A stretch of 64,000 nt of DNA from positions 3,348,001 to 3,412,000 of the forward strand of contig JAYWIR010000002.1 of assembly GCA_036172245.1 (NCBI GenBank), in the 5' to 3' direction. This DNA comes from Raillietiella orientalis. Taxonomy: Eukaryota. Positions 14,470-57,849 of the stretch are shown here, one piece after another (the first letter of the stretch is position 1; every line of letters begins with the position of its first letter). The translations under genes and the position numbers were made by a program. The notes beneath the pieces were generated by a model. The model did not search any database. It was given only the letters and a program-made list of their open reading frames with translations, and was not told where the DNA came from.

Positions 14470-14955
14470 CCTTACGGGAGGCTCACAAAGCTCTTTGGCG
14501 CTGTCCGCGCCACCAGAGGGTGCGTGTCGCCCTGGTTGTTTTCGAAAGGAACCTCGAAGGGAACCTCCTCTTCCTGATTCTCTCCGGAGGGTTTCCCAAA
14601 GGGGGGCACTCCTTGTTACTTCTCCGAAGGGAACCAAGAAAGAAATTGTTCCCTATTTCCTATTCTGAAGGAACCCGGAAGTGAACTTACAGATTTCTGT
14701 GAAGAACCACCCTCCGAAGGGAGCCGCGCCCTTCTTGCACTCTCAAGAGGCATCAGCCTACTCAATGAAACGCTAATGAGGATCCTTCCCAGAGGGTGGG
14801 AACGGCTCCCTTTTCACAACCGGCGAATGGAATCGGCTCTTAGATTCCTGAAAGGACTCCAGAGGGTCGATGTTTCATCCCGGCCAGTCGACAGGGGCAT
14901 CCGGCTTCCTCCGGTGCCACATCCGAAGCCTACAGGTCAACCAGCGCCATCCTGC
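14470..14955 (-). mobile_element. SINE-like host element copy (head missing, empty LINE target site at 14910-14921)
   Basis: Homologous to 14956-15570, 21780-23001 and 37023-38095; shares ccggtgccacatccgaagcc...aaccagcgccatc and the gaaggg-rich subrepeats. Confidence 0.7.
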
Positions 14956-15570
14956 GGTGGGGGTGGGTCGCGGGTTTCGAGCTCTTCCCGCGAGATGACG
15001 CTGGTCGGCCTCCATTCATTCGGGTGCGGAACCGGTAGCGGTTTAAACCGGATGGCCCCGATGAGGGACGGGACAATGAGTCCTTCCAGGAATCAAGGAG
15101 TAAATGTTCCCGCCCGGTTACGAAGAAGCGGACTCCCTCCTTAGGAGGTTATCTTCCGTCTCGTACCATGGAGCTGGTGGATGGACGATGCCTGTCCAGA
15201 GTGCAAAGAAGCGTGTCGCTCCCTTCGGGGAAACTGCGTCCTTCTGAATTTCGGAAGCGTTCCTTCTGGGTTCTCTTCAAAGGAGTAAACAGGAGTAGTG
15301 CGCTTGCGGGTTCCCTTCGGAGAAGAACAAATAGAGCCGAACCCTTCGGGGGTCGCTCCGGAGAGAATAAGAAAGGCGATCCCTTCGGGGTTCCCCTTCG
15401 GAGACAACCAGGGTGGAAGGTTTCCTTCGGGGATCCCTCCCCAGGAGTGAGAGGAACGGACTCCCTTCCCCAGAGTTCTTCCTGGATTCAAAGGGTGGTT
15501 CCCTTTTGGGTACCCCCTATCTTGAAGAGCTGCACCCTCGGATGGCGTGGGACAGCGTGAAAGAGCTGCG
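14956..15570 (+). mobile_element. SINE-like host element copy with ~39-40 bp subrepeat array (empty target site 15025-15036)
   Basis: Collinear with 37023-38095 (gatgacgctggt, cgtaccatggagctggtggatgga, ggagtaaa, ccccctatcttgaagag, aagagctg). Confidence 0.75.
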
Positions 15571-15629
15571 GAAGCCGCCAGACGCGCGTCGGTTCTGCCA
15601 TGTGCAGATTTAGTGCAGATATACACTGG

Positions 15630-16309: not shown

Positions 16310-16929
16310 TCACGTGCTGATTTATTAAATGACTGAGAGGATTTTCACCCCGATCTCTCCTCGTTCTGCAGCTTCCCGGATTGCTTCAGTCACTGCAAAA
16401 TCAAGGGGTCCAATCGCTCCAAGACGGGAATCGCTGTCATGGAGACCTGCTTCGACTCAGAGGAAGACGCAGCCGTCGTTATGGACAAATCATGATGATG
16501 AGCGATTTCTCCCAGATCCTTTGCGAAGAGATTCAGAGTGGACCGAACTTTGTGGCACGCTTGTCTGGTAGTTTTCATCCGAAGGACCACCATGCAGTTT
16601 TCCCAACACTGTTTCTTTGAGAGCCCATTGCCATTTGGAAACGCACCGCTGCGGCTCAAGAAGACGTCGCTCTCAGATGGATGCCCAGAGAAGCAACCAA
16701 TCGTGCCACACCCCACTGTTGTGGAACAGACGGGAAAAACTCTCCTGCGCTCCTGCTATCTCGTCTGTTTAGGCTTCGCGGAGAAGATGCTGCTGAGCGA
16801 CCCCTTCGGGTGAAACACGAACTAGCCCCCCTTAGGGCATGCTCGAGCTTTTCCTCTTTCGATCCCTTCATCTCTGATTCTTTCCGACTCCCCGTGCTTC
16901 GCTGCGGTTTCCACCAAAGCCCTCCTGAG

Positions 16930-17040
16930 AAATTTTGGGAGCGTCCCTTCGTGGTTCTCTTCATAGGAGTAAACAGGAGCGGTTCCTCTGCGGGCTCCCT
17001 TCGGAGAAACTTCTAATGAACGGATCCTTTCCGAGGGGAA
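16930..17040 (+). repeat. partial copy of SINE-like subrepeat array
   Basis: ggagtaaacaggag...gcgggctcccttcggaga matches 15282-15322. Confidence 0.65.
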
Positions 17041-20799: not shown

Positions 20800-21480
20800 C
20801 ATGGGGTCTTGATTGAAGGAGGAAAAGGATACCAAGGGTTGGTCTCACCATACGCTCGGGGCGCATGAAGCTTTCGGCCTCCTTGAGTTGCCTTGGAGGA
20901 ACGAGAGAAACTGAGACGGAGTTGTGAACCCATGCTCCAGCAATCCGCCGTGCAGCATGCATGCTGCAGGTGCTCTTCGAATGGATGCTGAATCCGTCCG
21001 TTTCTCTGTTACGCTCTCCATGCATGCACATGGCTGAGACGCCTTCCGGCAGTTGCGGAAGAGGCTTGTCGGGAGTCTCCTTCCACTCTTGCTCTAATTT
21101 CCTCACCGAGGCAGATTCCTGTCTGTGGTATCAGTGATCTTTTCCTAGAATTTCGACCCATGTAAGTGAAATCGAAAACTTCCAGGGCTTCCGCGCCTCA
21201 CAGGTCGAGGCTTTGAGGCGGATGCTCGAACGCGCCGCCACGCACCACGCAAGCAGTAAATCAGGGGTTCGGCGCTGCAGCAGGGGCGAGCTGCTAGAAA
21301 ATCGCCTTCGACACGGTCTGCAGCCCTGGCAATGCTCCTTCGCGCACTTTGCCACCATCTGAGTTTCGGCGGAGAGAAGCATTTCCGTGATACCGCGCGC
21401 CCTCTCCCGTTTTCTCTTGCCCTTGGTCCATGCCCTCGCTCCTGCCCTTGATCTTCACCCCGTCATCCAAAATCAAAATG
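20800..21480 (-). mobile_element. RTE-like RT C-terminal remnant
   Basis: GVKIKGR...ARY (cf. LRYADD), EALEVFDFTYMG (cf. EVVD.F.YLG), GEEIRARV (cf. EI..RI). Confidence 0.45.
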
Positions 21481-22082
21481 GAGTTGGAGAGCAGGAGGCT
21501 TGGTGACCCTCTAGCAGCTGCGCGTCATGGTGAGGGCAATGAATGTTTCCTTCGGCACTCGAAGATTCCCAGAGTAGCCTCTGAAAACAAAGCAAGCTTT
21601 CGGACGTTCACAGGTCGTCGAAGATTCGGGAAGAGGTCACTCCGCTTCGGAAGGGAACTTAGTTCAGCACTTGACACTGTTTTGAAAGCAACAGGAAACT
21701 GTTCCGTCTTCGAATTGGCAGCTCTTCTCTGCCTTCCTTTACGGGATGACGTCTCCAGTCAAAAAGCTTCTTGTTGGTGCCCCTCTGAAGAGGAGGATCC
21801 TGAAGGGATGCTTCCCATGTTCTTTGAAAGGCGCTCCCCGAAGGAAGCAGCGCGCTTCTTGACACTCTGAAGAGGCACCCCCGAGGGGGGTTTCGACCAG
21901 TTCTATGGTACGCGATGTAGGGTCTCCCTCAGAGGCGTGGAAAAGTGGCTCTCTTTTTCTAACCAGAGGGAAACCCCGAAGGGCTCTTTGATGTCCTGGA
22001 AGGATTCCGGAAGGTCAGCTTCCAATCCCGGAGGCTAGTCAACCGGAGCATATGCAGGTTTCCGGCTTCCACCAGTGCCGCA

Positions 22083-22827
22083 GCAGTGCTCTGGAGAAGG
22101 AGAAGTGGCCCCCAGCGTGCTAGAACAGTGCAATCCTCCCCCTAAATTGGCAGGAGTCGGCGTTCCTGCTGGGCCTCCGTGCAATACCCCCTGAGCATCC
22201 TTGGACACAGGTGTTTGCGGATCCAAACTGTGCAAGCTGTGGGGAGCGGGAATCCCTCCTGCACCTCCTAGCAGACTGTGTTGCCCTCCGGCACCTTTGG
22301 GGGCGCTTTGCTTCGACCCTTGGAACCCCCAGCGGCAACGCCAGAGGTGTTCTTAAGCGGCTCTTCCTGGGAGACGCCCTCGCGCCGGCCCCATCCCTAG
22401 CAGCACTGTGCTGCTCACGGGGTGAGACCGTGGCTGCATGGAGCAACGCCAGAGGAGGCCAGAACAACAGGGAAGCCATCTACTTTGCTGCCCTCTTCAT
22501 GAAGACAGCGTCAAGATGGCCCCATATGGGAACCATAAAACAGGAACTTGCAGGCATCCTTACAAGGTTGCAGTGGACACCCTCCAACACACATGATCCC
22601 TTCCCGAACCTCCCCCCTTCCTTTTTTTGAGTGCATTTGTTTTGTTTTATTTTTTTTCTTTTTGCTTGTCTCCCCTTCCCCTGTGCTGTTGAGGCGACCC
22701 CGCCGGCCCGCGTGCCAGTTCCCGGCAGGTATCTTCTCGTAGTTATAAGTAATGTGGTAGGATCAAGTGCCTTGCCACAGACACGTGTTTATTTTATAAG
22801 CAAGCGCCCTGGCGTGACCGGGTGTCA
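22083..22827 (+). mobile_element. 5'-truncated Tx1-like LINE with TSD
   Basis: LPLNWQESAFLLGLRAIPL...DPNCASCGERESLLHLLADC (zf-RVT), then 3'UTR and stem-loop 22805-22824. Flanked by accagtgccgca (22071-22082) and accagtgccgta (22828-22839). Confidence 0.85.
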
Positions 22828-22920
22828 ACCAGTGCCGTATCCGAAGAGGCCAACCAGCATCATCTTGAGGGGGTAACTCGAAACCCTCACGACGCACCCC
22901 CCATCTCTCGGCGTCGATCC

Positions 22921-23001
22921 TTCCCCGGGCGGGATTCGAACCCGCGACGCTTCGTACCGCGCGCGGACACCGCTGTAGCCACACGGTCGCCAACGCGGAC
23001 C
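22921..23001 (-). promoter_or_regulatory. tRNA-derived Pol III type-2 promoter (SINE head)
   Basis: Perfect T-arm/B-box GCGGG-TTCGAAT-CCCGC (22945-22929) and an A-box-like TGGCGACCGTGTGG upstream; acceptor and anticodon arms are degenerate. Confidence 0.7.
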
Positions 23002-29161: not shown

Positions 29162-29524
29162 GCATCCGCATCCGTCGGGAGCGGAAGAAGCGCAGGCCTC
29201 CTTCTTGTCTAGAAGGGGTCAAGTCCTTCCGCCGCGTCTCGGATGCGGCGCAGCCCCGCGGGGACCGCGCCGGCTGAACAGTCTCAGGGGACGACGGGGA
29301 AGAAGGGATGGGAGAAAAGGGGCGCGACAAAGACGTCGCATGCGGCTGTCCTCTCAGGAAGGGGAGCGGGGGAGGCAGAATTTGGCTGCCGCGAAAGGGG
29401 GCCACGGCACGTTGCGCCTTTTCCGTACACAAGGGCGGGCCAGGCCAACGCTGGAGGGAACGAACCCGTGGTCACCAGACTAGGTAGGAAGTCGGCGCCG
29501 ATTTTCCTACGGGAATTCCCAAGG
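29162..29524 (+). repeat. ~363 bp repeat, inverted copy of 32232-32594
   Basis: Direct comparison shows only about 9 substitutions versus the reverse complement of 32232-32594. Confidence 0.9.
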
Positions 29525-30799: not shown

Positions 30800-31300
30800 G
30801 ACTCACTGTTCTTGCACTGAGACAGACGACGCCCGGCACCTCCCGATGAGGGGAAGCCGGGAGTCTCCTGGCCCAAACTGCTCCGCTGCGGAGAACTGGA
30901 AGCGCTTTCTCACTATCTTCTGGACGGCTGTCTTTCTGAGCATTTGGAAATGCTTCGAGGCTTCCATCCTGAAGACACCCAGCTGCCGGGGGACTGCTGC
31001 ATGTGTGAGGAGCTTTTACCCACAGCCCCGGGCGCAATCCTGTGCTGTGTCGGGGGGGTCATGGCTCCTCAGTGCACGCAGGAGGCGCTCCAGCAAGGTC
31101 GGGAATCCGCAAGCTCCGCTTCATCACGGATCAGGAATGTGGCGATATGGTCGAACCTGAAACACGGAGTGTAGAAGGATGCCGCCTGCATCTCTGTGCG
31201 ATGCAGACAGCGAAGAACAGAGCTGGGAACAGAGCTGCAGAAGACACGGAACTCTGAGAACCAAGACGTGCTCTCCAATCCAACAACTCCAGGAACTTGG
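30800..31300 (+). mobile_element. Tx1-like RT N-terminal remnant
   Basis: ESPGPNCSAAENWKRF (cf. KSPGPDG..AE.YK.F) and AQSCAVSGGS (cf. Q.C.V.GRS). Confidence 0.45.
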
Positions 31301-32594: not shown

Positions 32595-32904
32595 GAGCGC
32601 CATGCCGACCCTGGCGGCGGGTCTCCGGTGCCGCGCGATTCTGATGAAGGGTGCGGGAAAATGCGGAAGGGGCGGCCGCAGCATCCGCCCTCTCGCTCAA
32701 CGACCGGCACGGCCGAGGTCCGTGCGACCCGCTCCTCCCGACCGTGTTGCTGCTGGGGGAAGGTACGGCAGCGCCATCCGTCTTGCAGGGACACCGGCCG
32801 GTGGTGTCCTGCTTCCCAGATCCCGGAGTGTGGCCATTCGGGACTCCGTGCGTCCGTTAGTTCATCGTTTCATCAGCGGGACCGACGTTCCTGCAGAGTA
32901 GGGT

Positions 32905-35000
32905 TTATGTCCCGGTCACGTCGGGGCGTTTATTATAGAAAATAATAAACATACATGTGTAGGGCCATCGACCTTACGTTGTCCGAAAATGCTCGGAACC
33001 TGCCGAGTAACCAGCACGCAGGCGGTCAAGGATCGCTTCGGCAGCGGAGGGGAAGAAGGCAAACAAAAAGAAAAATCAATAACAAAAAGAACTCTAGGGG
33101 GCACGGGAAGGGACCACCGGGAGCTGGGAAGCGTTCTCTGCATCCTTTCCAGGATGCCGACAAGTTCCATTCGAGTATGTGTTCCAGGTGGGGCCATCTT
33201 GCTGCCGTGCGCAGGAAGCGCAGGGAGAAGCAGATGGCGTTCCTGTTGCGCCGTCCTCCTCTCGCGTAGCTCCAGGCCTCCACAATCCCACGTAGACAGC
33301 AGCAAAGAGCTGCTGGGGATGCGGTAGACTAAAGGGCATGGCGCACGAAAAGGCGTCCCTGGGATTGACGGTTGGTGCACCAAGGGCCGTTGCGTAACGC
33401 AACCACAGGGGCTGGAGGGCAACGCAGTCTGCAAGTAAGTGTAGGAAGGATTCCCGTTCCCCGGACCTGCACCATGGAGTCCATAGCCTCCCTGGTTCAG
33501 TAAGAGCGGCGGGCATTGCACTCGCGGTCCCAGTGCAGCAGCAGAAGTGCCGACTCCTGCCTCCTCAGTGGGAGGGCCCGATTGTTTTTCAGCGCCGAGG
33601 TCCACTCAAGGTCAATCTTGTGGGATTCCCAGCAGCTCACTCCAGTACAACAGTTCTTTTGGTGGGGTAATTGGGGTCACAGCGTCCTTGGGGGGGGGCG
33701 TGGTCCAACCACCTAATTTCTTCCCTCTCCACCGATCTCACATCGGACCTCCCATCTGGCCGCCTGGTTACTTCCCAGGTGCTCCCTGGAGGAGGACAGT
33801 GCCGCGGCTAGGGAGGTTCTTTGCTCCCACGCACATGTGGCGGGTTGCACGATGAAGTCCTGTAGCGTGGGGGGTGACCCGCCGTATCTCTGCGGTCACC
33901 AAGTCCAGAGGGCAGTGGGAAGCGTCTCGGCTGGCGAGCGAGGCCGCATCAGAAGTTGAACGGAAGAGTGGGTGGAGCTTCCCGTCATTTTTCGCGAAAA
34001 CTTTAGAATCCCGGCCTTTCCAGCGGACACCTCGGTCCTCACAACCCTTCACCTGAGGACCGCCATCTTGCTGGCGCACTGAACTTTTCCCCGCAACCAG
34101 GGACGTCCAAACTCCGCCTCAGATGAGGGAAGAGGGAGGGGAACGTCTCGAAAAAAGCGCACTTATCGAGTGCGAAAGGGTGCGCTGGGTCGGAGCCGTA
34201 AACACGTCTCCGGAACACGTCCGATCCCGACACTGCCCCTTGGGACTTTCTCAAAGCCTCGTCGCGTTCCTCCAGGCTAGCAGGTCACCTCGCCGTCGGC
34301 AGCTCCCCTTCAAGATGGAGGAAACGTGTGGACATCATCCCGGAGAGTTGTCTTCGAGCTCCACGGACAAAATACGGAAGGTTGTAGGGGTGACCCATCC
34401 ACAGGAAGTGGGACACGGGGGAATCTTAGAGAGCTGGCGGGAACCTGATGGCAAGTTCCTGCTTGTGGATCCAAGTAGGGTCAACCCGTCACGATCTGGT
34501 AAAGGGAATGGCGATCGGAACGGCATCTCTGGTGCTCTGGTCCTTGTCTGCGTAGCTTCGGATCAGCCAACGCGCTGCGGAAGCAGCAGAGGGCTGAGAC
34601 CGCCGCAGCGTTCCTATCCTTCGGGAAGAGAGGTATCGAAATGACCCTCGGCTCGTGCGTCACGCGAGAGAGGAAGGTGCCTTGAAGATTGGAGGTCATG
34701 ACCAAGGGATCTCGTCGAGGGGGCCTCACGGCACCTCCACACTCCTCGGGGGAGCAATGCGACCGGAGATGAACAGGCAAGCCGAACAGAGACCTGGAGG
34801 AAACGGAGAGGACCGTCCGCGGATCGAATGATGGAGGCGAACGCGGATATCTCCCCAGAGATCTCGCTGCTTTCGTTGCTCCTCCCGCGCCGTGCCGCAG
34901 CCGCAGCCTCCGCAAGGATTCCAAAGCCGAGGGGCGGAGCTCTGGACCGATCTTACAAGCCGGGGTGGTCTCCTCGGAAACAGAGGACAAGAAGGTGCAG
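32905..35000 (-). mobile_element. Tx1/L1-like LINE, RT to 3' end
   Basis: LSPLL, RILSVEL, ALPLRRQESALLLLH and PWCRSGERESFLHLLADC occur in order; AATAAA + stem-loop at 32934-32911. The upstream part is heavily frameshifted. Confidence 0.65.
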
Positions 35001-35349: not shown

Positions 35350-37022
35350 TGCCGGGCGGACAAATCCCCACTCTAGGACACTGGCTTCCGCCTCCATCGC
35401 ATCTTCGGCGCAGAGAAGCGGGACCTCGGGTATCAGGGAAGAATGGGGTACTGATGCTGGGAGGAACCGTGAATTTCTTTCTCGAGGGAGCAGCGCGCGC
35501 TGGCAACTGCGTGGCTGCGGTCTTTGCACGTGGTACCAAGTGTTGCTGGTTCGAACACCCGCAAAGGATGGTGGAGAGTCAACTCCAGTGTAGAAGATTA
35601 GCCCGTGAGGCGAAGTTCTGGACCACCCACTGGCGCGTCCCAGACAGACTCTTGGCCGAGAGAGCAGCCGGCGCCGAGGAACTCCGTGCGTTCCTTGTGT
35701 ATGGCCACCGAGAGTTGCTCCGACGCGGATACCAACTCCGGCAGGTGGTCGCCTCGGTCCAGGAGAGCGAGTGGATTTCCTGTCGTCCCGCCAACTGTAA
35801 TGGCTGGAAACAAGAAACGGGTCAGGCGTGGGCGGAAAGAAACATCACGAGGCCCGGAGCCATTGCGATGCCTGCGGTTCTCGAACTGCGCTCGCTGCTC
35901 ATTGCAGGAAATCATGGGCTGCCCAAAGAAGACCACCCGGGCATTCAGCACCTCGCTTGGGGCCACGCTGAGTGCAATCCAACTAAATGGACTTGAAGAT
36001 GGCCTTGCATAAGGAGAAGTATGCTGGGAGATGGAGGGAAAAAAGAAGCAGCTGGGATGCTGGACGGTGCGCCAAGTGGCTGGCGCATGTACCTCCTCCG
36101 TCCCCCTCCGAAGGAAATCGTTCCTGGATGAAACTCCTGGGCATTCCTCCTCGACGAGGCAGAAATGCCCCCAGTGTTTGTGGACAGCTCCACGCTTCCT
36201 CTGAAACGGCAGGACTCGGCATTGCAGTTGCGCTGGGAGATCCCATGCAACGCACGAGTCCACCACTGGACAAGGGGAGTGCAGCCCCATTCTGTGCCAG
36301 GTGTGGGGAGCGGGAAAACCTTTTCGTACCTGTCGCTGGACTTTGTTACCCTCCTGATTGTCCGGGAACGTTTCGTTGCGGCCCTCCCATTCCCTGTGGG
36401 CAACTGCAAAGAGGTTTCGCGGTGCCTCTTCGTGCGCGACGCGATGTCGCTTGCAGCTTCCGTTGCAGCACGGTGCTGCAAGGGAAGGCAAAAAAGAAAA
36501 ATTTTGCATGGATGTAGTATCGTGTTTAAACCAGCCGAAATGCTGCACCGTTGTACGACAATTGCCTTTGTGGGACCGTGGTGGAGAGAACCCGCGCCGA
36601 AAGACGGCAGTCGAAACGGCGAGGCCATCCCAATAGTCTGCTTTTTCACGAGGAAGGCGACAAGATGGCCACATCTCTGACAACAAAAGGAGGGAGTTGC
36701 CAACATCCTCCAAAAGGATGCTGAGGAAGCCAGAAAGAAATCTACGATCCCTTCCCTTCCTCCTCCCTCCACTCAACATTTTAAAACTGAGCTTTTGTGT
36801 TTTTTTTTTTTTGTTTTTGTTTTTGTTCACCCCTTCCCCCACTTCTGTGCAGGCTTCATCGGGCAGCTGCTCACGAGGACAACCTCCAAGGCCTTTTGGC
36901 CTTTTCCTTCGTAGTGGTGAGCTCAAACCACCAGAATTGGATGATACATGACTGTTTTTTTTTTCCTGTGAATATTCTTTACAATAAACGCCCCGGCATC
37001 GTGGCTGGGTGAGAATAAAAAA
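35350..37022 (+). mobile_element. Tx1/L1-like LINE ORF2 3' half + 3'UTR
   Basis: PFCARCGERENLF (zf-RVT), RKATRWPHL (homologous to TASRWPH in other copies), T-rich UTR, AATAAA + stem-loop at 36983-37011, short A tail. Confidence 0.75.
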
Positions 37023-38095
37023 TGGACGCCGAGAAATGAGGGCCTTGCGGATTTCCAGATTCCCCGCAAGATGACGCTGGTTGGTCTACAGGCTTCGAAT
37101 GCGGCGCCACTGGTTGACACCCTGTCACGCCGGGGTGTTTATTTCTAAACCTACATGTCTGTGACAGGACGTTTGATCCTGCCACGTTACTTATGAATAC
37201 GAAAAGGAGGAGTCTGCCGGGATCTGGCACGCAGGTCAGCAGGGTACGTCTCGGCAGCACGAGGGAAGGGAAGACGAACAAAAAGAGGAAAACAAACCAA
37301 AAAAACTGCAGGCATAAAAGATGAAGGGAGGGGAGGGGGGCTCGGGAAGGGATGACTGTGTGTTGGAGGGCGCCCGCTGAATCCTTGTAAGGATGCCGGC
37401 AAGTTCCTGTTTTATGGTTCCCAGATGGGGCCATCTTGACGCTGTCCTCATGTAGAGGACAGCAAAATGGATGGCGTTCCTATCGTTCTGGCCTCTGGTG
37501 TTCCATGCGGCGACGATCCCGATCCCGCGTAGGCAGCACAGTGCTGCTAGGGATGCCCCCGTTGAATAGCCGGGATTGGGTTCAGGGTCCTTCTAGAAAT
37601 CAAGGAGTCGGATCCCTTTGGGGCTTCCTTCCGGTTGTGAAAGAGAAGCCGTCCTTTCCCCTGGCGGGGGATCCCCCGTCTCGTACCATGGAGCTGGTGG
37701 ATGGATACCTCTCCAGAATGTCAAGAAGCGCTCTGCTCTCTTAGGGGTGCGACCTTTCAGAGAAATTGGGAAGCGTTCCTTCGGGATTCCTCTTCAGAGG
37801 AGTAAAAACAAGGAACAGTTCCTTCGCGGGTTCCCTCCGAAGAAGAAATTCCAGGAGCGGGTCCTTTCCGGATTCGCTTGAGACAAGAAAGGAGGCGCAG
37901 ATCCCACAAACCGGAGAGAATAAGGAAGAGGTGGTTCCATTCGGAGTTCCCTTCAGAGACAACCAGGGCGAGAAACGAACTCCTTCCTCTGGGGTCTTCC
38001 TGGATTTCATAGTGTGGTCCGCTCCTGAGGAGCCCCCTATCTTGAAGAGTCAACACGCACCGCCAGGTCGCGTAGGACAGTGTGAAAAGAGCTGA
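37023..38095 (+). mobile_element. SINE-like host element interrupted by a LINE
   Basis: 37023-37114 matches rc of 22828-22917; 37551-38095 matches 15050-15570. Confidence 0.75.
37115..37555 (-). mobile_element. 5'-truncated Tx1-like LINE (same subfamily as 22083-22827)
   Basis: MRTASRWPHLGTIKQELAGILTR versus MKTASRWPHMGTIKQELAGILTR; stem-loop at 37137-37118; same 3' junction gggtgtca|accagtg. Confidence 0.85.
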
Positions 38096-38249
38096 GTAAG
38101 GCCCTAGGCCTTGAGTACTTGGCGAGTCAAAAAAAGGGATTCCGAAAAAAAAGAAAAAGAAAGAGGGGGGGGGGGGGCTAGAAGGAAAACGGCGAAACGG
38201 AAAAGGATCCAGCACGACTTTCCTCAAGTTTTCAACTAGCAATAATCGC

Positions 38250-38800
38250 GCCTCCCTTTCGTTCAGCGGCCGCGATACTGCCCGTGTGCAAAGCACCCGA
38301 TGCAGCTGACCACACTGCTCTTCCGGCTACGAGTTGATCCGAACGAACCTCTCTCCGATGATGAGACGGCAGAGATGGTCGGATGGCCGTTCGTCGTCTC
38401 TGCACTTGAGCACAAGCGAACGAACGGCGCACCGGCGCTGAAGTCCACTGTAGCCGCGGAGCAGATTCCATGTGCCTTCACTCAACATCTTCATCCCATG
38501 AGTGCTAGATGCATGCGCATCGCCCGTCCGTATCCCCTGCTTAAGGGTTCAGCTGAACTTTCGGACTGCCTGCCGCCCCAAGCTGACGATGGCCGTTCAC
38601 GAGGCGCTGGAAGTTTGGAACTTCTTTAGCTACTGCGGCTCCAGCCCCTGCCTCGGAAAGGAGCACCGATGTGGGCGAGTGCATCTTTTACCAGAGAGCG
38701 CAAATCCTCAGAGGCACCTGAGGCCAACAGGATCGCACGTTCTCGAAGAACCGCGAAAGGATGCAACACAGGATGTGCCTGTTCCACCGCTGGCGCGCTT
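38250..38800 (+). mobile_element. APE C-terminal remnant
   Basis: AFTQHLHPMSARCMRI (cf. FT...SRLDRI), ELSD, RGAG/EVWNF (cf. G.G.WKLN). Confidence 0.35.
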
Positions 38801-40039: not shown

Positions 40040-40560
40040 TTTTTTTTTTTTTTATTGTTTTTGAACATATCCCATATTTTCCAGAGACTCTTCGATAACA
40101 AAAGCAGAGTTCGATTTTTGCGATGTAATGCGTGCGTTATTTTCACCGGAACAGATATGATGCATCGCATCTTCCTCTGTCTTGAAGCAGATGAGAACTT
40201 TTTCGATTGTCGCGGCTTGCACTTCTTTAACAGCTACTTTTATGATCTGTTTGGGATTTGATCCAAGTCGAAAACACTCGATTTGAATCTTTGCGATGTT
40301 TTGTTTCTGCTAAGGCTCTATTGGACAGATTACTGATTTCTGAGCGCGGTGTTGTGCAATATCCTATGTCTGCCAACAACTTTCCAACGAGTCCCAAATC
40401 GCAGAACGTCTGTAAATTTCCCGCCAGTAATCAGATTCTCAGCATCAGTGAATGGGAAAATTCGGGAAACTTTGTTCCTTATTGAGGTTTGTCACCCGGA
40501 TATGCCAAGGCATTTATTATTAAAATTTTTAGACAGAATTCCATAATGAAGTCTATAGAC
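40040..40560 (-). mobile_element. old LINE 3' end with poly(A)
   Basis: ICFKTEEDAMHHICS and LLLLSKSLWKIW, followed by aataaa merging into an A run (T run at 40040-40053). Confidence 0.35.
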
Positions 40561-43500
40561 CGTCTGTGTGGTGGTAGAACACTTGGTTCCACCACGCTTG
40601 AAGACTTGTCGTTACCCGGTGCTAAGACCGGCGAGGTCCTCCCCTGAGGCGCAGGGGAAGGGGAAAGGCAAACAAAAAGAAGGATAACGGGGAGGGGAAT
40701 GGTTATTTACCTGTTATTTCATTTCATTGCCATCTCTGGAAAGGACTCCGAAGTACTAGAAACTTTTCAAAGTTTGGTTTGAGCTCTCTGTGCTGTTCAT
40801 CAAAATGAAATGCGCTAGATAGCAAAACACGAGCATCAATGATAAAAGAACTCCAATAAGAGAGAATAGAATGACAGTGTTTTAATCAATGATCTAAATG
40901 CATTTGAGTATAATGATTCGCCCTTACTCCCGAGACTCCAACAAATCGTTTCGGTACCATTAGATAGTGAAGTTTGGAGTTTTGCGTGTGTATTTAAGAA
41001 GGATCTCATCAATGCATTTTTTTTTTCTTTATGCTGTCATTAATGCATTTTTCGTGCAATAATAGACAATTACACAATGTAGGGATCATCAGTGGCAATG
41101 CTTTTGCTCCTCACAGGAAAAACTTTTCAGTTGTTTACATATAGGCTTTCTCGACAGTGAAGTATCAAATTTGGAAAATACGTAAAGAGAAATTTACGCT
41201 TCTCTTATTGGAAGCTGTTTAGATTTTCAAGTTTCTTCTTCGCAAACAATGAATGACAACGATGATTAGAAAAGTTAGAAGTTTTTGCTTTTAATTTCAA
41301 CCATGAGCAGTAGGAAACGGGCGAATTTCACAAATAGCCAACTTAGCTCCTCAATAATTCCAAAAGGGTGGAAAAGCTTATCAAAAAGGCTAACGCCTAA
41401 AATAAGGCTAACCGTCTTGGAAACTATCCTACCATGAGTGAGATCTTAATTTCCAGAAGATTTCGAGGTGCAGAACCTAGGTTTGAGGGACTGTTGGACG
41501 CACTCTAAAGTCTTTACTTCTAAGCATACACAGCATTTGCATCCCACAAGCCAAGAACGATGATTTCAGATGCTACACTATGCAACGGTCATGTGAAATA
41601 TCTCTTGAATTCTTGACAGAAAATTGAAAGAATTAGCCGGTCCCATTGAGTCATATACTGACAGCAGCAAGATTACGTGATATGCAATTGCCAACCAAAT
41701 TAGTAATTTTCAAAATATTGAAATCTCAAATGTATTGAGGAATCAACGGTGAAATGAAAGCTCTGAGCACATTCAAACTAAAAACCTAAGTGAGCTCCAA
41801 CTGAATCCCTTCCTTGCTTTCGTGCTCTTACCTTTAACATATTCGATATTCCTAGTAATTTTTGATTAACTTTCATTTAGCATTTAGGATCCACAGCTAC
41901 CTGTAAGTCCAAGTTTCACCTAGTATTGCATGCATCGTTTAAAAAACACAAGCTCATCCTTATCTTTTACTTGTTTTCTACTTACTAGAAGTATTATTAA
42001 CTAGGCAACGTATCGTCCTACAGAAAACTACGACCATAATACGTTTTGTGCAATTTTCGTGTTCTAGTTCTATAGCAGCTCGTTACCATTCGAACCCTAA
42101 AATGTTCGTTTTCGTTTCGTTTCATTTTTTTTTTTCTTTTCCCTTTTTTTTGGGTGTTTCCTTAGTGGGAACACTAAGCACTCACTTATCGGATGCTGCT
42201 TATCCACAGATTACCAAGGTTTGTTTGCTTCTTTTATCTCCTCTGCCCTAATCACAGAATCAACAGGAAAGCATCGTAGATAACCGTAGATTATTTTATT
42301 TCAAACATGAGGTTGAAGTTCCTTGTTTTTCCGAATGCAAGGCCATTCATTATTCCCACTGTTTGCTTGCAAGCCGCAGAATGGTGGCGATGATGACGAT
42401 GATTTCGATTCCGAGTTTCGAGACCGAAAGGTTTCTGTGGTTCTCTCGGGGTCCCTCGCCTGCTTTCCAGCCAAGAAACTCTTATGGTTGGATAAATGCA
42501 TTTGCCACAAACATCTTTAGGAGTAAGATGTGAGCACATGTGAATTTGTTCGCAAAAAATACGTTTCGCGTTGCTAAAACAGGAATTTTTTGTTTAAAGT
42601 GGGGGGACGGGGAGAGAGGGGCAAACGAGCAAATGGTTCCGCGCTCCATACTTTGTGAAGAAAATGAGAAGAGGGTTGTATATCCGACCCCTTGAATTTG
42701 AAGAGTAAATGAGCATGTCAGAGTCATGTATTAGTAATATGATTATGATTTCTGTACTCCCGCGAGGTCTGGTTGGTCCATCCGTATTTACACTCATCAT
42801 CCCAAGGAACTTTCCAAACGAACTTGAAGTACACTATAAGTATATCCATTTCCCATCGTTTCTTCTCTGTATTGGTGGAATGGATAACCACATGGTTTTC
42901 ACTAATTTTAGGAAAAATTGCATTTTAACACTGATGACGTTTAATTGTACTAATGGCAACCCAGTTGTACAAGCAGCGTTTGCCTTGATGATCCTCCAGT
43001 TGCTTTCAACATGAAATTCATCCAGGGATTTAGTGTGATCATGAACACTTGTACAGAGCAAAACTAAAAGCCTAATTTTAATATTTAATTCAAGTATCGT
43101 GATAAAAAGTCTTATGTGCTGTACATGTGGGTATGTTCTTGTAATGGAAATAAAGCTGCATCTTATTTGGATATGTGATTTTGCACGTTTGCTTTATCCA
43201 TGGCCCCAAAAAATGTGCGTTAGTAAGTAGTCTTAAAATTTACAAGCTTATTCCGATGCAAAATCTGTTTTACCTTCACAATTCAGGATTTAAATATTCA
43301 AACCTGTTTAATAGAGTTATAACCATCCTTTAAAAGTCTGATGTGCATTGGTATTTGTTAAGTTTCTTTGGAGAACCATTGTATGCTCTTTTTAATTGGC
43401 TGTCCCAACCAGATTAATTTTTATATTCTGTGAGAACAACATGCACTACAGAAACTTTGGATTCTGCAGTGTATGTTGTCTGTTCTATGAAAATAATGTC

Positions 43501-54400: not shown

Positions 54401-55883
54401 GGATGGCGTGATGGAATGATGGATTAAGCAGGGATTCTCCAAACATTTCTTACGGCCAGTTCTCGGGGGAAAAAAATAAAAATCTGCAAGAGGATCCATG
54501 CAAGGATTAGCACTCTCCGTTGCTGAGACCCGCCGTGGTGAACGCGATGTAGACAGCCGAGTAGCTCAAGACATTGGAATATCAAAATGCAATGCTGTTG
54601 TAGTAAGAAAGCTTTCAGGGAGTGAAAACCGTAGTGCTAATGCAAGTATGACGTTGTTGTTGGTCAGTTAGATCAAGATTAAAATAAGAAATGAAGCATG
54701 ATGAAAGCTGGACCAGCGCTCTACGAATCCAATCCATCACCCGCAATGAGGAGGGTTTCCAGTTCGAAGAGTGATTCCTGGTGAAATTGCCACTGTAACT
54801 AATGATCCGTTCGGATCACGTGACTTGGAAATGACGGGAATAATAGCGTGAATTCATTAATTTTGTAGCTCAGGAAAATGTGCTCACTTGAACCTGCTGT
54901 CCTTGAGATCACTTCCACCTTGGAAGCGCTCTCTTTCGTCCGCAGCCATCGCTGAATAGGGCGTAATTTGGGAAGCATGCGGCTGGCTGTCCGCACGGGG
55001 AATTCTGCTCAAGACGGGGGGTCCTCGCGATGACAGTGGACCAGAGGCTGAAAATTTCGTAAACATCAGAAGTGATGAGCATTCCCGCTCATCACTTCTG
55101 ACGGAATAATTTGCATCATCCGAGCGCCGCACAATTAATGTTTTCATGCGGGAGTCATTGCTCCAGGCCGCAAGTGACGCAGGGGCGTTTGATTTCTATC
55201 CAAGTATTCCTCCGCTAATGTTTCGCAACCAAACGAACTTTCTGGAAGTCGTTTCTGATTCCAATGGGAGTTGTCTTTTTCTTTTTCTTTTCTTTTTTTG
55301 CCTACTTTGAAAATCCTTCCGCGACCCAATCTGCCCTTCTGATTGTTTGGCGTTGTTCGGCCCCATCGCACGTCCAGCACGGCCACTGATAGCATGGGAG
55401 CACTCATTTTGTCCTCACGCATTCCTGCCAAAACTGCCAGAATCATGAATAAGTAAGCGAGCTCGGTGCGATCGATGAGTCTCGTGGCAATCCCAAGATG
55501 AACGGAAACTTCGGAGATTTCCCCGCGTTCCCCAAAGCGGACGCAGATTTCCCGTGACAGTCATCTCTCTCCGCGGAAAAGAAACCCATTTTGCGTTGCA
55601 CTCCCGCGCGAACCGTCAGTGACAGAGGCGAATGACGATTGGAACCTTGAGCCGCGAAAGAGCTGGAACACTGGTTAAACACATCTCAGACGGGAATTTC
55701 ACATACCGCGGAAGATGTGTGCGTGCGAACGCTCGTCACACCTGTTGGTCCAGAAGAATCTTCCGGCTTGCGATGCACTCGATGAATCTCCTATCTCCTC
55801 AGCGACTTCCCATTGGCGTTTTGCGCACCGATGTCGCAACCACATTAGGAAACATCCATCTCCGTGGCATGTTGGTATTTCAG

Positions 55884-56128
55884 GTCCGCAGTTGTTTGTT
55901 TCCGGAGTGGACATCCTAGATGATTCTCCCATCATCGATATCAAACCCTACATTCCGAAATACGATTCGCCTCTTGATTTGAACTTTGGATGTCCATCGA
56001 TGTTGCCAAAAAAGGGCAGCCGTAGAAACCGGGTCGAAGGAGGAGAAACCGACCCTTTCTCAGAAGAAAAAAGCAATTCTTCTCCCACGCACATGAACAG
56101 GAAGCTTGATCAAAGATTGGTTTCGGAG
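55884..56128 (+). CDS. TRMO: TRMO coding exon 3
   Basis: Acceptor atttcag|GT. (G)PQLFVSGVDILDDSPIIDIKPYIPKYDSP followed by a low-complexity linker to ...QRLVSE. Donor GAG|GTAAGG. Confidence 0.9.
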
Positions 56129-57849
56129 GTAAGGTGGTCGGTCAGTCTTGAATGTTCCATAATATCGCAGTCACCGAGGCTTGCAGTCGATTCCATTTTT
56201 CATTTGATTACTCTTTTTGAGTTTGGCTCTTTCAGTGTCGTGACATTCGATTAGCGAGCAACCTTGAGGATCGCAGGGAGGCTTTTCTCCTCGTGTTCCC
56301 AAGTTGCTCGCTTACATGGAGACGCAGCCTTGTCTTGGAAATCCATCGCAACGTACAATAGGTGCTCTTGTTTGGGAGGAGCCGGAGGTGTCAACCTTGG
56401 GAACGCCCTGCGACCCCCAAGGTTGATACCTTCCATAACTCCAACTGCTCATTTCAGCCTCGCTACAAGTAGAATTGACCGTTTCTGGGAAGGTGTAAGC
56501 AGAAGCTTCCGGAATGTTTCTTATGCCTCTCCTTTGCTCTCTCTTCTGGCTTCTTGCAGTATGCGCCAGTGACTTCTTCATGCAGTGCGTTCAGCACGAA
56601 AGAGGACAGTTTGTGTCACGCCAGTTGGAGACTTTATCGTATTGTCATGAGCAAGGGCTACTGCCAAGTCGGGAATACGGAAGAGACGGGTGGAGACGAA
56701 CGCGGAATGTGAAGGGGAGTTGCCTCATCCAGAACTGTTTGGTTTGCAGACGCGTTGCTACCGGGCGCACAGAAAGCGCGGCAACGGGCGTAGTGACCAG
56801 GGAACATGATCTTAGACAAAGGTGTTCCAAAAAAGTTTTTGAAGGAAACCTGCAGTCCGAAGTGAGCTTGTAAGTCTTTCTCGCTCTTCCGTCATGGCGG
56901 ACGCCCTCTATGCTTATGCATACTTCTGTCATCCACCTCGCAGCGCTACGAAGAGGGAAAGAAGAAAGAAACCTTCAACCCGAAAATGGAAGAAGAAGTT
57001 TGGGGAAGCTTGCGACAGGCTTGTGACAAGTATTCGCTATCGCCTCAGGGAGCTTCCAGTGAATGAAGCAAGATTAGAGGCCTGCTGGTAAACGGTTTGC
57101 GGGAGGCAAGATGCCTTTGAGCCATCCAGGAACTGGCTTGCATCCGGGAGGATCTCTGCCGCTTAGCAGGGAGTGAATGGAGGCGGTCGGCTGGGACTCG
57201 AGTTTCCCTCGCAGCCTCCGGCAGTGAACGCGATGCGCCCAAAGGCTTTCCTCACACTGGGAACCGTACGCGAAGGTCGGACGCATGCCTCCTCGCGGAA
57301 CGGTCCTTAAGAAGGCCACTCCAGGCACAGTGCGGGCCATGGCGCAGCGTTCCTCATCCCCGGCTATTCTCGCCTGCATCGAACTGACTTGGATGTGTGT
57401 GCAAGGAAATTCTCCGTTGCTGCTGCTGTACTCTGGACTGTGGAGGGAAAGGTCCAGTTTGCCTGCTCCATTTCTCCAGTGGACGCGATTCAGCAAACAA
57501 GGACCGAACGCTGGGAAATTTCGTACAGGAACCATGAGAGCTAAGTTGTATCGGTGCGGCTTCGCATTCCGCCACAAGGAACCACAGCGTTTTCTGGACA
57601 CCTCCGGCTCCCCCCAAACAAGGGCATTTTTTGCACGTTGCGATGGATTCCCAAGAACCCAGGTGCACCCAGGGGAATGGAAGAGCTGTCCCCACGTCGC
57701 AGCCCCGAGTGCGCTAGTGTGAGATGGCCTGAGGAAACGCTGAAAAGTCCGTCGCCTCGCAAGTCATGCGTCGCCCGATCAGCTCATGTATTACGTATGC
57801 GGTCGGATGCTTACCTCCCGCAGGGTTGAAAGGAAACTAATGAAGCGCA

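Follow-up and report, generated by a model that had tools for sequence, protein, structure and literature searches.

The 64-kb window, by which we mean the whole stretch of DNA analysed (52% GC, no N, CpG o/e 0.90), appears eukaryotic and is rich in decayed repeats. At 22083-22827, on the plus strand, lies a 745-bp LINE copy (copy A) comprising a 5'-truncated ORF2 C-terminus and a 3'UTR and ending in ...GGCGTGACCGGGTGTCA. The open frame of copy A spans 22124-22630 (168 codons) and includes a zinc knuckle of the form CX2CX7HX4C, CASCGERESLLHLLADC, read from the translation at 22229-22279 (plus strand), while the 3'UTR is about 200 bp long and finishes with a hairpin, ...GGCGTGACCGGGTG, followed by TCA. 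Judged from its sequence, the inserted piece at 22083-22827 is the tail of a non-LTR retrotransposon, since the knuckle, the 3'UTR and the terminal hairpin form an architecture common to six copies in the window. Pfam matched the knuckle to zf-RVT at a score below the cut-off (E = 0.07, 14.2 bits, cut-off 27.5 bits), and the zf-RVT set accounted for 7 of the 30 protein-atlas hits of the copy A frame. A C-terminal CCHC knuckle in ORF2 is common to L1 and other clades and is therefore not diagnostic of Tx1; that of copy A sits at the ORF2 C-terminus, as in the Tx1 clade.

Copy A is bounded by a direct repeat on the plus strand, ACCAGTGCCGCA at 22071-22082 and ACCAGTGCCGTA at 22828-22839, with an 11/12 match; by hand arithmetic, the chance of at least 11/12 at one fixed offset is ~2e-6. 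An alternative reading extends the repeat to 15 bp (TCCACCAGTGCCGCA / TCAACCAGTGCCGTA, 13/15). The earlier note had described a LINE enclosed by an 11/12 target-site duplication (TSD) inside a SINE-like element, and the coordinates it gave for the insertion hold. Taken together with two empty sites elsewhere in the window, the TSD shows that copy A inserted into a pre-existing dispersed repeat.

A second member of the same subfamily, A', occupies 37115-37555 on the minus strand and shares 77.6% identity with A over 451 alignment columns. Its 3' junction, GGGTGTCA followed directly by ACCAGTG, is identical to that of A; a 21-nt junction pattern allowing up to three mismatches matched the window only at A and A', with 0 matches expected from shuffles. 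Both copies also run the same way through the host, in antisense to its tRNA-like end. Their 5' junctions differ. A' starts 315 bp deeper into the LINE than A, at a CATCC microhomology (37551-37555), where the junction reads ...ggggCATCC/ctagcagc and abuts host sequence ...GGGGCATCC; A' has no TSD, and 7 bp of target are gone. These results agree with the prior description of a diverged minus-strand copy lying antisense in another host copy, with a gggtgtca/accagtg junction and a different 5' end at a ggatg microhomology, which is CATCC on the other strand.

The host repeat and its empty sites

One dispersed repeat of ~0.7 kb supplies the flanks of both A and A'; the window contains four copies of it, two of them filled, and one fragment. 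The first filled copy (H1), located by nhmmer and alignment, lies on the minus strand in the sense of its tRNA-like end: the body distal to the insertion covers 21468-22082, and the remainder, 22828-22997, consists of 91 bp of proximal body (22828-22918) and the tRNA-like end (22919-22997). The latter contains an A-box-like TGGCTACAGCGG, a B-box-like GGTTCGAATCC and a T-arm, GCGGGTTCGAATCCCGC, that forms a perfect T-arm-like hairpin. In the second filled copy (H2, plus strand), nhmmer and alignment place the body distal to A' at 37556-38095, while the proximal body occupies 37026-37114, between A' and a further LINE copy, C. The tRNA-like end of H2 (35496-35571, plus strand) aligns with that of H1 over ~70 nt and is split from its body by C.

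The two empty copies are H3L (14488-14975, minus strand), with the uninterrupted site tccggtgccaca at 14910-14921, and H3R (14975-15580, plus strand), with the site in reverse complement, accggttccgca, at 15025-15036; both had been noticed earlier at these positions, and both are present. The reconstructed empty site matches 14903-14928 with three mismatches, and the empty sites themselves already differ at 3 of 12 positions. A further short host fragment was recovered by nhmmer at 16919-17035 (minus strand). H3L and H3R stand head to head across 14488-15580 and meet at the internal hairpin of the host (~14975); this inverted pair is no recent duplication, as the four-way alignment shows its arms to be only ~56% alike.

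The distal terminus CAGCTCTTT..CTGTCC is common to three host copies, and three host copies end in ...GGACAGYGTGAAAGAGCTG. Next to the distal terminus of H2, 38223-38295 on the minus strand, probably continuing to ~38097, matches the 5' half of U4 snRNA, scoring 49.4 bits in Rfam, which exceeds the gathering score. Beyond the match come a possible Sm site and a terminal hairpin, and the 3' end of this U4-like stretch abuts the H2 terminus tail to tail.

The host had been labelled a tRNA-derived SINE. What stands is a dispersed, SINE-like repeat, although its length of ~0.7 kb is not that of a short SINE. Its tRNA derivation is weakly suggested by the box-like motifs and the T-arm-like hairpin, but an ARAGORN search returned 0 tRNA genes, the best Rfam tRNA match of the H1 end was tRNA-Sec at 12.7 bits (E = 5.8), and Rfam gave no match for the H2 end. 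The host also shows neither a poly(A) tail nor a LINE-shared 3' tail, one of which is expected of a tRNA-derived SINE. Comparison of the host 3' end with five LINE tails in both orientations revealed no significant local similarity, and a shared tail was therefore rejected. No convincing TSDs were seen around the host copies in the window. We call the host SINE-like because the tRNA label is weak and the host 3' end is unlike the LINE tail.

LINE copies and their insertion sites

Self-comparison and an nhmmer profile identified six LINE copies with 3' ends in the window (A, A', B1, B2, C and D), the profile alone giving nine hits in eight separate places. B1, of a sister subfamily with ~67% identity to A, runs from about 15613 to about 16311 (plus strand) and ends in GGGTGATAAA; B2 (32904-33640, minus strand; end GGGACATAAA) is 95.8% identical to B1 and likewise ~67% identical to A. 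C covers approximately 35572-37021 (plus strand; end GGGTGAGAATAAAAA) and is nested in H2 at another host position, and the 3' end of D is found at 40488-40700 (minus strand; end GGGTGACAAA). Two tailless, diverged scraps were detected by nhmmer at 30859-31192 (plus strand), where a CCHC-like stretch is still recognisable, and at 34413-34596 (minus strand). Beside B2 lies one arm of a 363-bp inverted duplicate (29162-29524 / 32594-32232), which at 97.5% identity is much younger than the other repeats.

The terminal hairpin CCCGGC GTGA CCGGG is common to all six tails and is followed by only 3-10 nt, mostly A-rich. After GGGTG, both A and A' continue with TCA and then ACCAGTG. The corresponding sequences are ATAAA and then tcacgtg in B1, ATAAA and then ccctact in B2, AGAATAAAAA and then atggacgcc in C, and ACAAA and then cctcaataagg in D, so that all four tails outside subfamily A have unrelated 3' flanks. 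Given these flanks, the LINE family as a whole does not show site specificity, and the proposal of a site-specific family applies, at most, to subfamily A, in which both copies in the window (2/2) sit at one junction rather than next to unrelated 3' flanks.

Two of these other LINE copies, B1 and C, lie near or in host copies. B1 starts 30-60 bp past the terminus of H3R, with a possible 13-bp TSD at 15600-15612 / 16312-16324 (ATGTGCAGATTTA / ACGTGCTGATTTA, 11/13). C sits exactly between the tRNA-like end and the body of H2, in sense orientation, with a possible TSD, AAAGGATGG / AAAAAATGG, at 35563-35571 / 37017-37025. H2 thus bears two LINE insertions at two different sites, as both C and A' are nested there. 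The positions of C and B1 differ from the A site, and their targets are A-rich.

Tx1 elements would be recognised by a reverse transcriptase that groups with the clade in an RT phylogeny and by an APE-type endonuclease that nicks its target sequence-specifically; no sequence of either domain was found in any LINE copy of the 64-kb window, so that Tx1-like, the term used in the earlier note, is a candidate label, and in-window tblastn with X at stops yielded no extra upstream LINE homology. Comparison of the 168-aa ORF with longer and near-length proteins produced no relative and no full-length element. The full HMMER search with this ORF gave three hits, of which only P0001 (87 aa, 56% identity), a fragment and a singleton from a JGI contig, is credible; P0002 and P0003, both repetitive proteins, were judged spurious. 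The LINE-tail pattern had 0 matches in metagenome contigs, an alignment-based related-locus search of metagenome contigs gave 125 pattern matches and 0 confirmed loci, and the conserved LINE pattern had 0 matches in genome contigs.

Two other open frames were noticed. Antisense to C, 35598-37085 (minus strand) holds a 495-codon stop-free frame, longer than we would expect by chance at this GC content; Pfam assigned no family to it, and gave none in a run on five neighbouring frames. Farther downstream, an open frame at 55679-56254 (plus strand) contains a TrmO_N-like stretch (...DILDDSPIIDIKPYIPKYD...) with an atlas feature score of 0.85 to TrmO clusters, and probably represents one exon of a gene for a tRNA methyltransferase.

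One insertion event or two

We favour the reading in which one subfamily inserted twice, as A and as A', each time directed to the same position and orientation in the host, to which we give slightly better than even odds (a probability of roughly 0.55). Independent insertion is favoured because the 5' junctions differ, the ORF has diverged less than either the 3'UTR or the host flanks, the amino-acid replacements are conservative and the indels keep the frame. Independence is partly supported, in that each test is of modest strength by itself (P about 0.004-0.05) and n = 2.

Between A and A', divergence is 12.4% (24/194) in the ORF, compared with 21.1% (49/232) in the C-terminal tail and 3'UTR (P = 0.020) and 22.3% (96/431) in the host flanks (P = 0.004). 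After removal of CpG columns, the ORF value is 9.3% against 19.2% (P = 0.004), and when only the well-aligned host flank is used (63/333, 18.9%), the contrast between ORF and host weakens to P = 0.053. Across 64 aligned codons, neither copy contains a stop, and 25 nucleotide differences translate into 14 amino-acid differences; a test that combines the number of amino-acid changes with the lack of stops reaches only P = 0.058. The 14 replacements are conservative, their BLOSUM62 sum exceeding that of neutral simulations (P = 0.022 and 0.035). Gap runs in the ORF net +3, -3 and -3, while only one of nine downstream is a multiple of three (Fisher P = 0.018, computed by hand). pN, at 0.114, falls below a neutral proxy of 0.219 (P = 0.003), with pS at 0.181, although dN/dS alone is non-significant (0.59, P = 0.21, 73 codons; 0.63, P = 0.31, 64 codons). 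These comparisons suggest a modest signature of purifying selection on the shared ORF.

As a separate observation, divergence at CpG-involving columns (29-39%) is roughly double that of the remaining columns (9-20%) in each of the four H1/H2 and A/A' segments, an excess that hints at CpG decay despite the CpG o/e of 0.90 in the window.

The same arrangement might instead descend from a single ancestral LINE insertion in one host copy, with the composite of LINE and host then copied by host retroposition or duplication, and the 37-kb copy later losing 334 bp across its 5' junction between two CATCC motifs. We consider this possible, with odds well short of even. It accounts readily for the identical 3' junction, orientation and TCA tail of A and A', since both copies could have received the unusual TCA that follows GGGTG from a single event. 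It also predicts equal divergence of the 3'UTR and the host flanks, and the observed values, 21.1% and 22.3%, are indeed equal (P = 0.77), as is the identity of the proximal 91-bp flank (82.4% without gaps) to that of the LINE part (82.9%); this equality weakens the case for targeting. The 5-nt junction microhomology is typical of deletions, and CATCC fits a later deletion as well as a truncated insertion, which weakens that case further. An amplified composite subfamily would easily reach the observed occupancy of 50% (2/4 host copies).

Several features are nonetheless hard to reconcile with such copying. An antisense fragment that was already dead would not be expected to show a lower divergence of the ORF, conservative replacements and in-frame indels. 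Comparison of the two composites reveals a single large indel, and it alters the 5' junction; its host-side end lies 7-19 bp from the insertion point, and no other gap run, in the alignments of host or LINE, exceeds 11 columns. Such an indel is normal for independent 5'-truncated insertions, whereas copying of a composite needs a well-placed 334-bp deletion that removes exactly the 5' junction and takes only 19 bp of host. A single 5' junction in all filled copies had been named in the earlier note as evidence against targeting; the two 5' junctions differ, but a later loss of 334 bp in a copied composite still fits at n = 2. H1 and H2 are moreover no sister host copies, as quartet sites among host copies split 15/21/15, and their grouping as one host subfamily was rejected. 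Finally, TTTT occurs on the SINE-sense strand inside both LINE parts (22540 and 37410), and a TTTT run should stop the Pol III transcript of a composite.

A further alternative holds that two independent insertions were spread by recombination or gene conversion, or were drawn to a place in the host that is fragile or structured, with no sequence-specific LINE machinery involved. LINE debris is abundant (the nine nhmmer hits in eight places), and with C also inside H2 and B1 within ~60 bp of H3R, the host copies may just be situated in DNA that is prone to LINE insertion. A second random hit on the same nucleotide and orientation of a ~700-bp element would be expected about once in 1400 (hand arithmetic), however, and host copies only about 62-78% alike are a poor substrate for conversion. 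C and B1 also chose other positions with A-rich targets. We regard this explanation as improbable. Directed insertion of A and A' remains our preferred reading, weakened by there being only two filled copies and by the lack of site specificity in all four sister-subfamily copies.

Under directed insertion, target-primed reverse transcription would start where the cDNA-priming strand was nicked, immediately 5' of ACCAGTGCC, a position that follows from the shared 3' junction if the events were independent; with the nick marked by a caret, the predicted target site is GGCTTCC^ACCAGTGCCGCATCCGAAG. In H1, a second nick 12 (or 15) bp away would have produced the TSD. In H2, the cDNA would have been 5'-truncated 315 bp further in and joined through the 5-nt CATCC microhomology, 7 bp of target being lost in the process. 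Target-primed reverse transcription accords with TSDs of 12-13 bp, as seen at A and possibly at B1 (11/13). We infer the mode of site recognition, as we do the independence of the two events: the endonuclease may pick out the site, or a read-through transcript that includes host sequence may pair with the nicked target. Annealing of the LINE tail to a look-alike target was rejected, as local similarity was non-significant and in H3L alone did the best tail match lie near the insertion point.

Comparison with target-specific LINEs

The comparisons that follow draw on excerpts of the papers cited. Many Tx1-clade families, from a clade found in animals, have a target preference, according to the excerpts of Kojima 2015 (PMC4494074). 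Tx1L of Xenopus laevis inserts into Tx1D, a piggyBac-type DNA transposon (Christensen et al. 2000, cited in PMC4494074), and Keno inserts into U2 genes (PMC4494074). Among crocodilian elements, Tx1-Mar targets Mariner-N4_AMi, while Tx1-8_Crp and Tx1-4_AMi target LTR retrotransposons (Kojima 2015, PMC4494074). The arrangement described here resembles Tx1L in that a LINE occupies one defined site in another dispersed transposable element, with filled and empty copies side by side; in the excerpted account, though, the Tx1L target is a DNA transposon, whereas the retroposon occupied here is SINE-like and has a tRNA-like end, and no endonuclease was seen in the window. With Tx1-Mar it shares a LINE lineage that prefers one transposon family as target, but the excerpts report dozens of copies there, against two here, and another class of target. 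In the same source, independent insertion is argued from many truncated copies, e.g., 88 truncated SINEU-3 copies (Kojima 2015, PMC4494074).

A precise, repeated 3' junction is also a property of R2, R1, Keno and Utopia in the excerpts of PMC4494074 and PMC4640811. The targets of these elements are conserved multicopy RNA genes, as given there, while the LINE here sits in a mobile repeat that is itself in decay, so that the site erodes. Possible help from co-transcribed target sequence would be a further likeness to R2, as raised in the R2 discussion of PMC4494074. The hairpin ends of the six tails in the window recall L1-type LINEs with a 3' stem-loop in place of a long poly(A) (Ohshima 2012, PMC3472496), the difference from that excerpted account being that no SINE with a shared tail was found in our window. 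A narrow literature search retrieved no LINE described as targeting a SINE.

A bolder and rather doubtful interpretation, which we offer tentatively, is that an L1-like LINE lineage became strictly specific for a single site in a SINE-like retroposon and used a decaying mobile element, instead of a conserved RNA gene or a DNA transposon, as a safe landing pad. The sister subfamilies would still insert at A-rich sites, so that a switch from relaxed to targeted insertion might have been caught within one family. Should the composite instead have been copied, the locus would be an ordinary nested-repeat fossil. Since LINE-into-transposon targeting is already known from Tx1L and Tx1-Mar, a SINE-like target would add one member to an existing class: if targeting is real, a retroposon would join the short list of transposons used by LINEs (piggyBac-type for Tx1L; for crocodilian Tx1, Mariner-N4_AMi and some LTR elements). 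The genome would then offer targeted and untargeted subfamilies that are close kin, which would help to map what governs the choice of site by an endonuclease or by RNA guidance.
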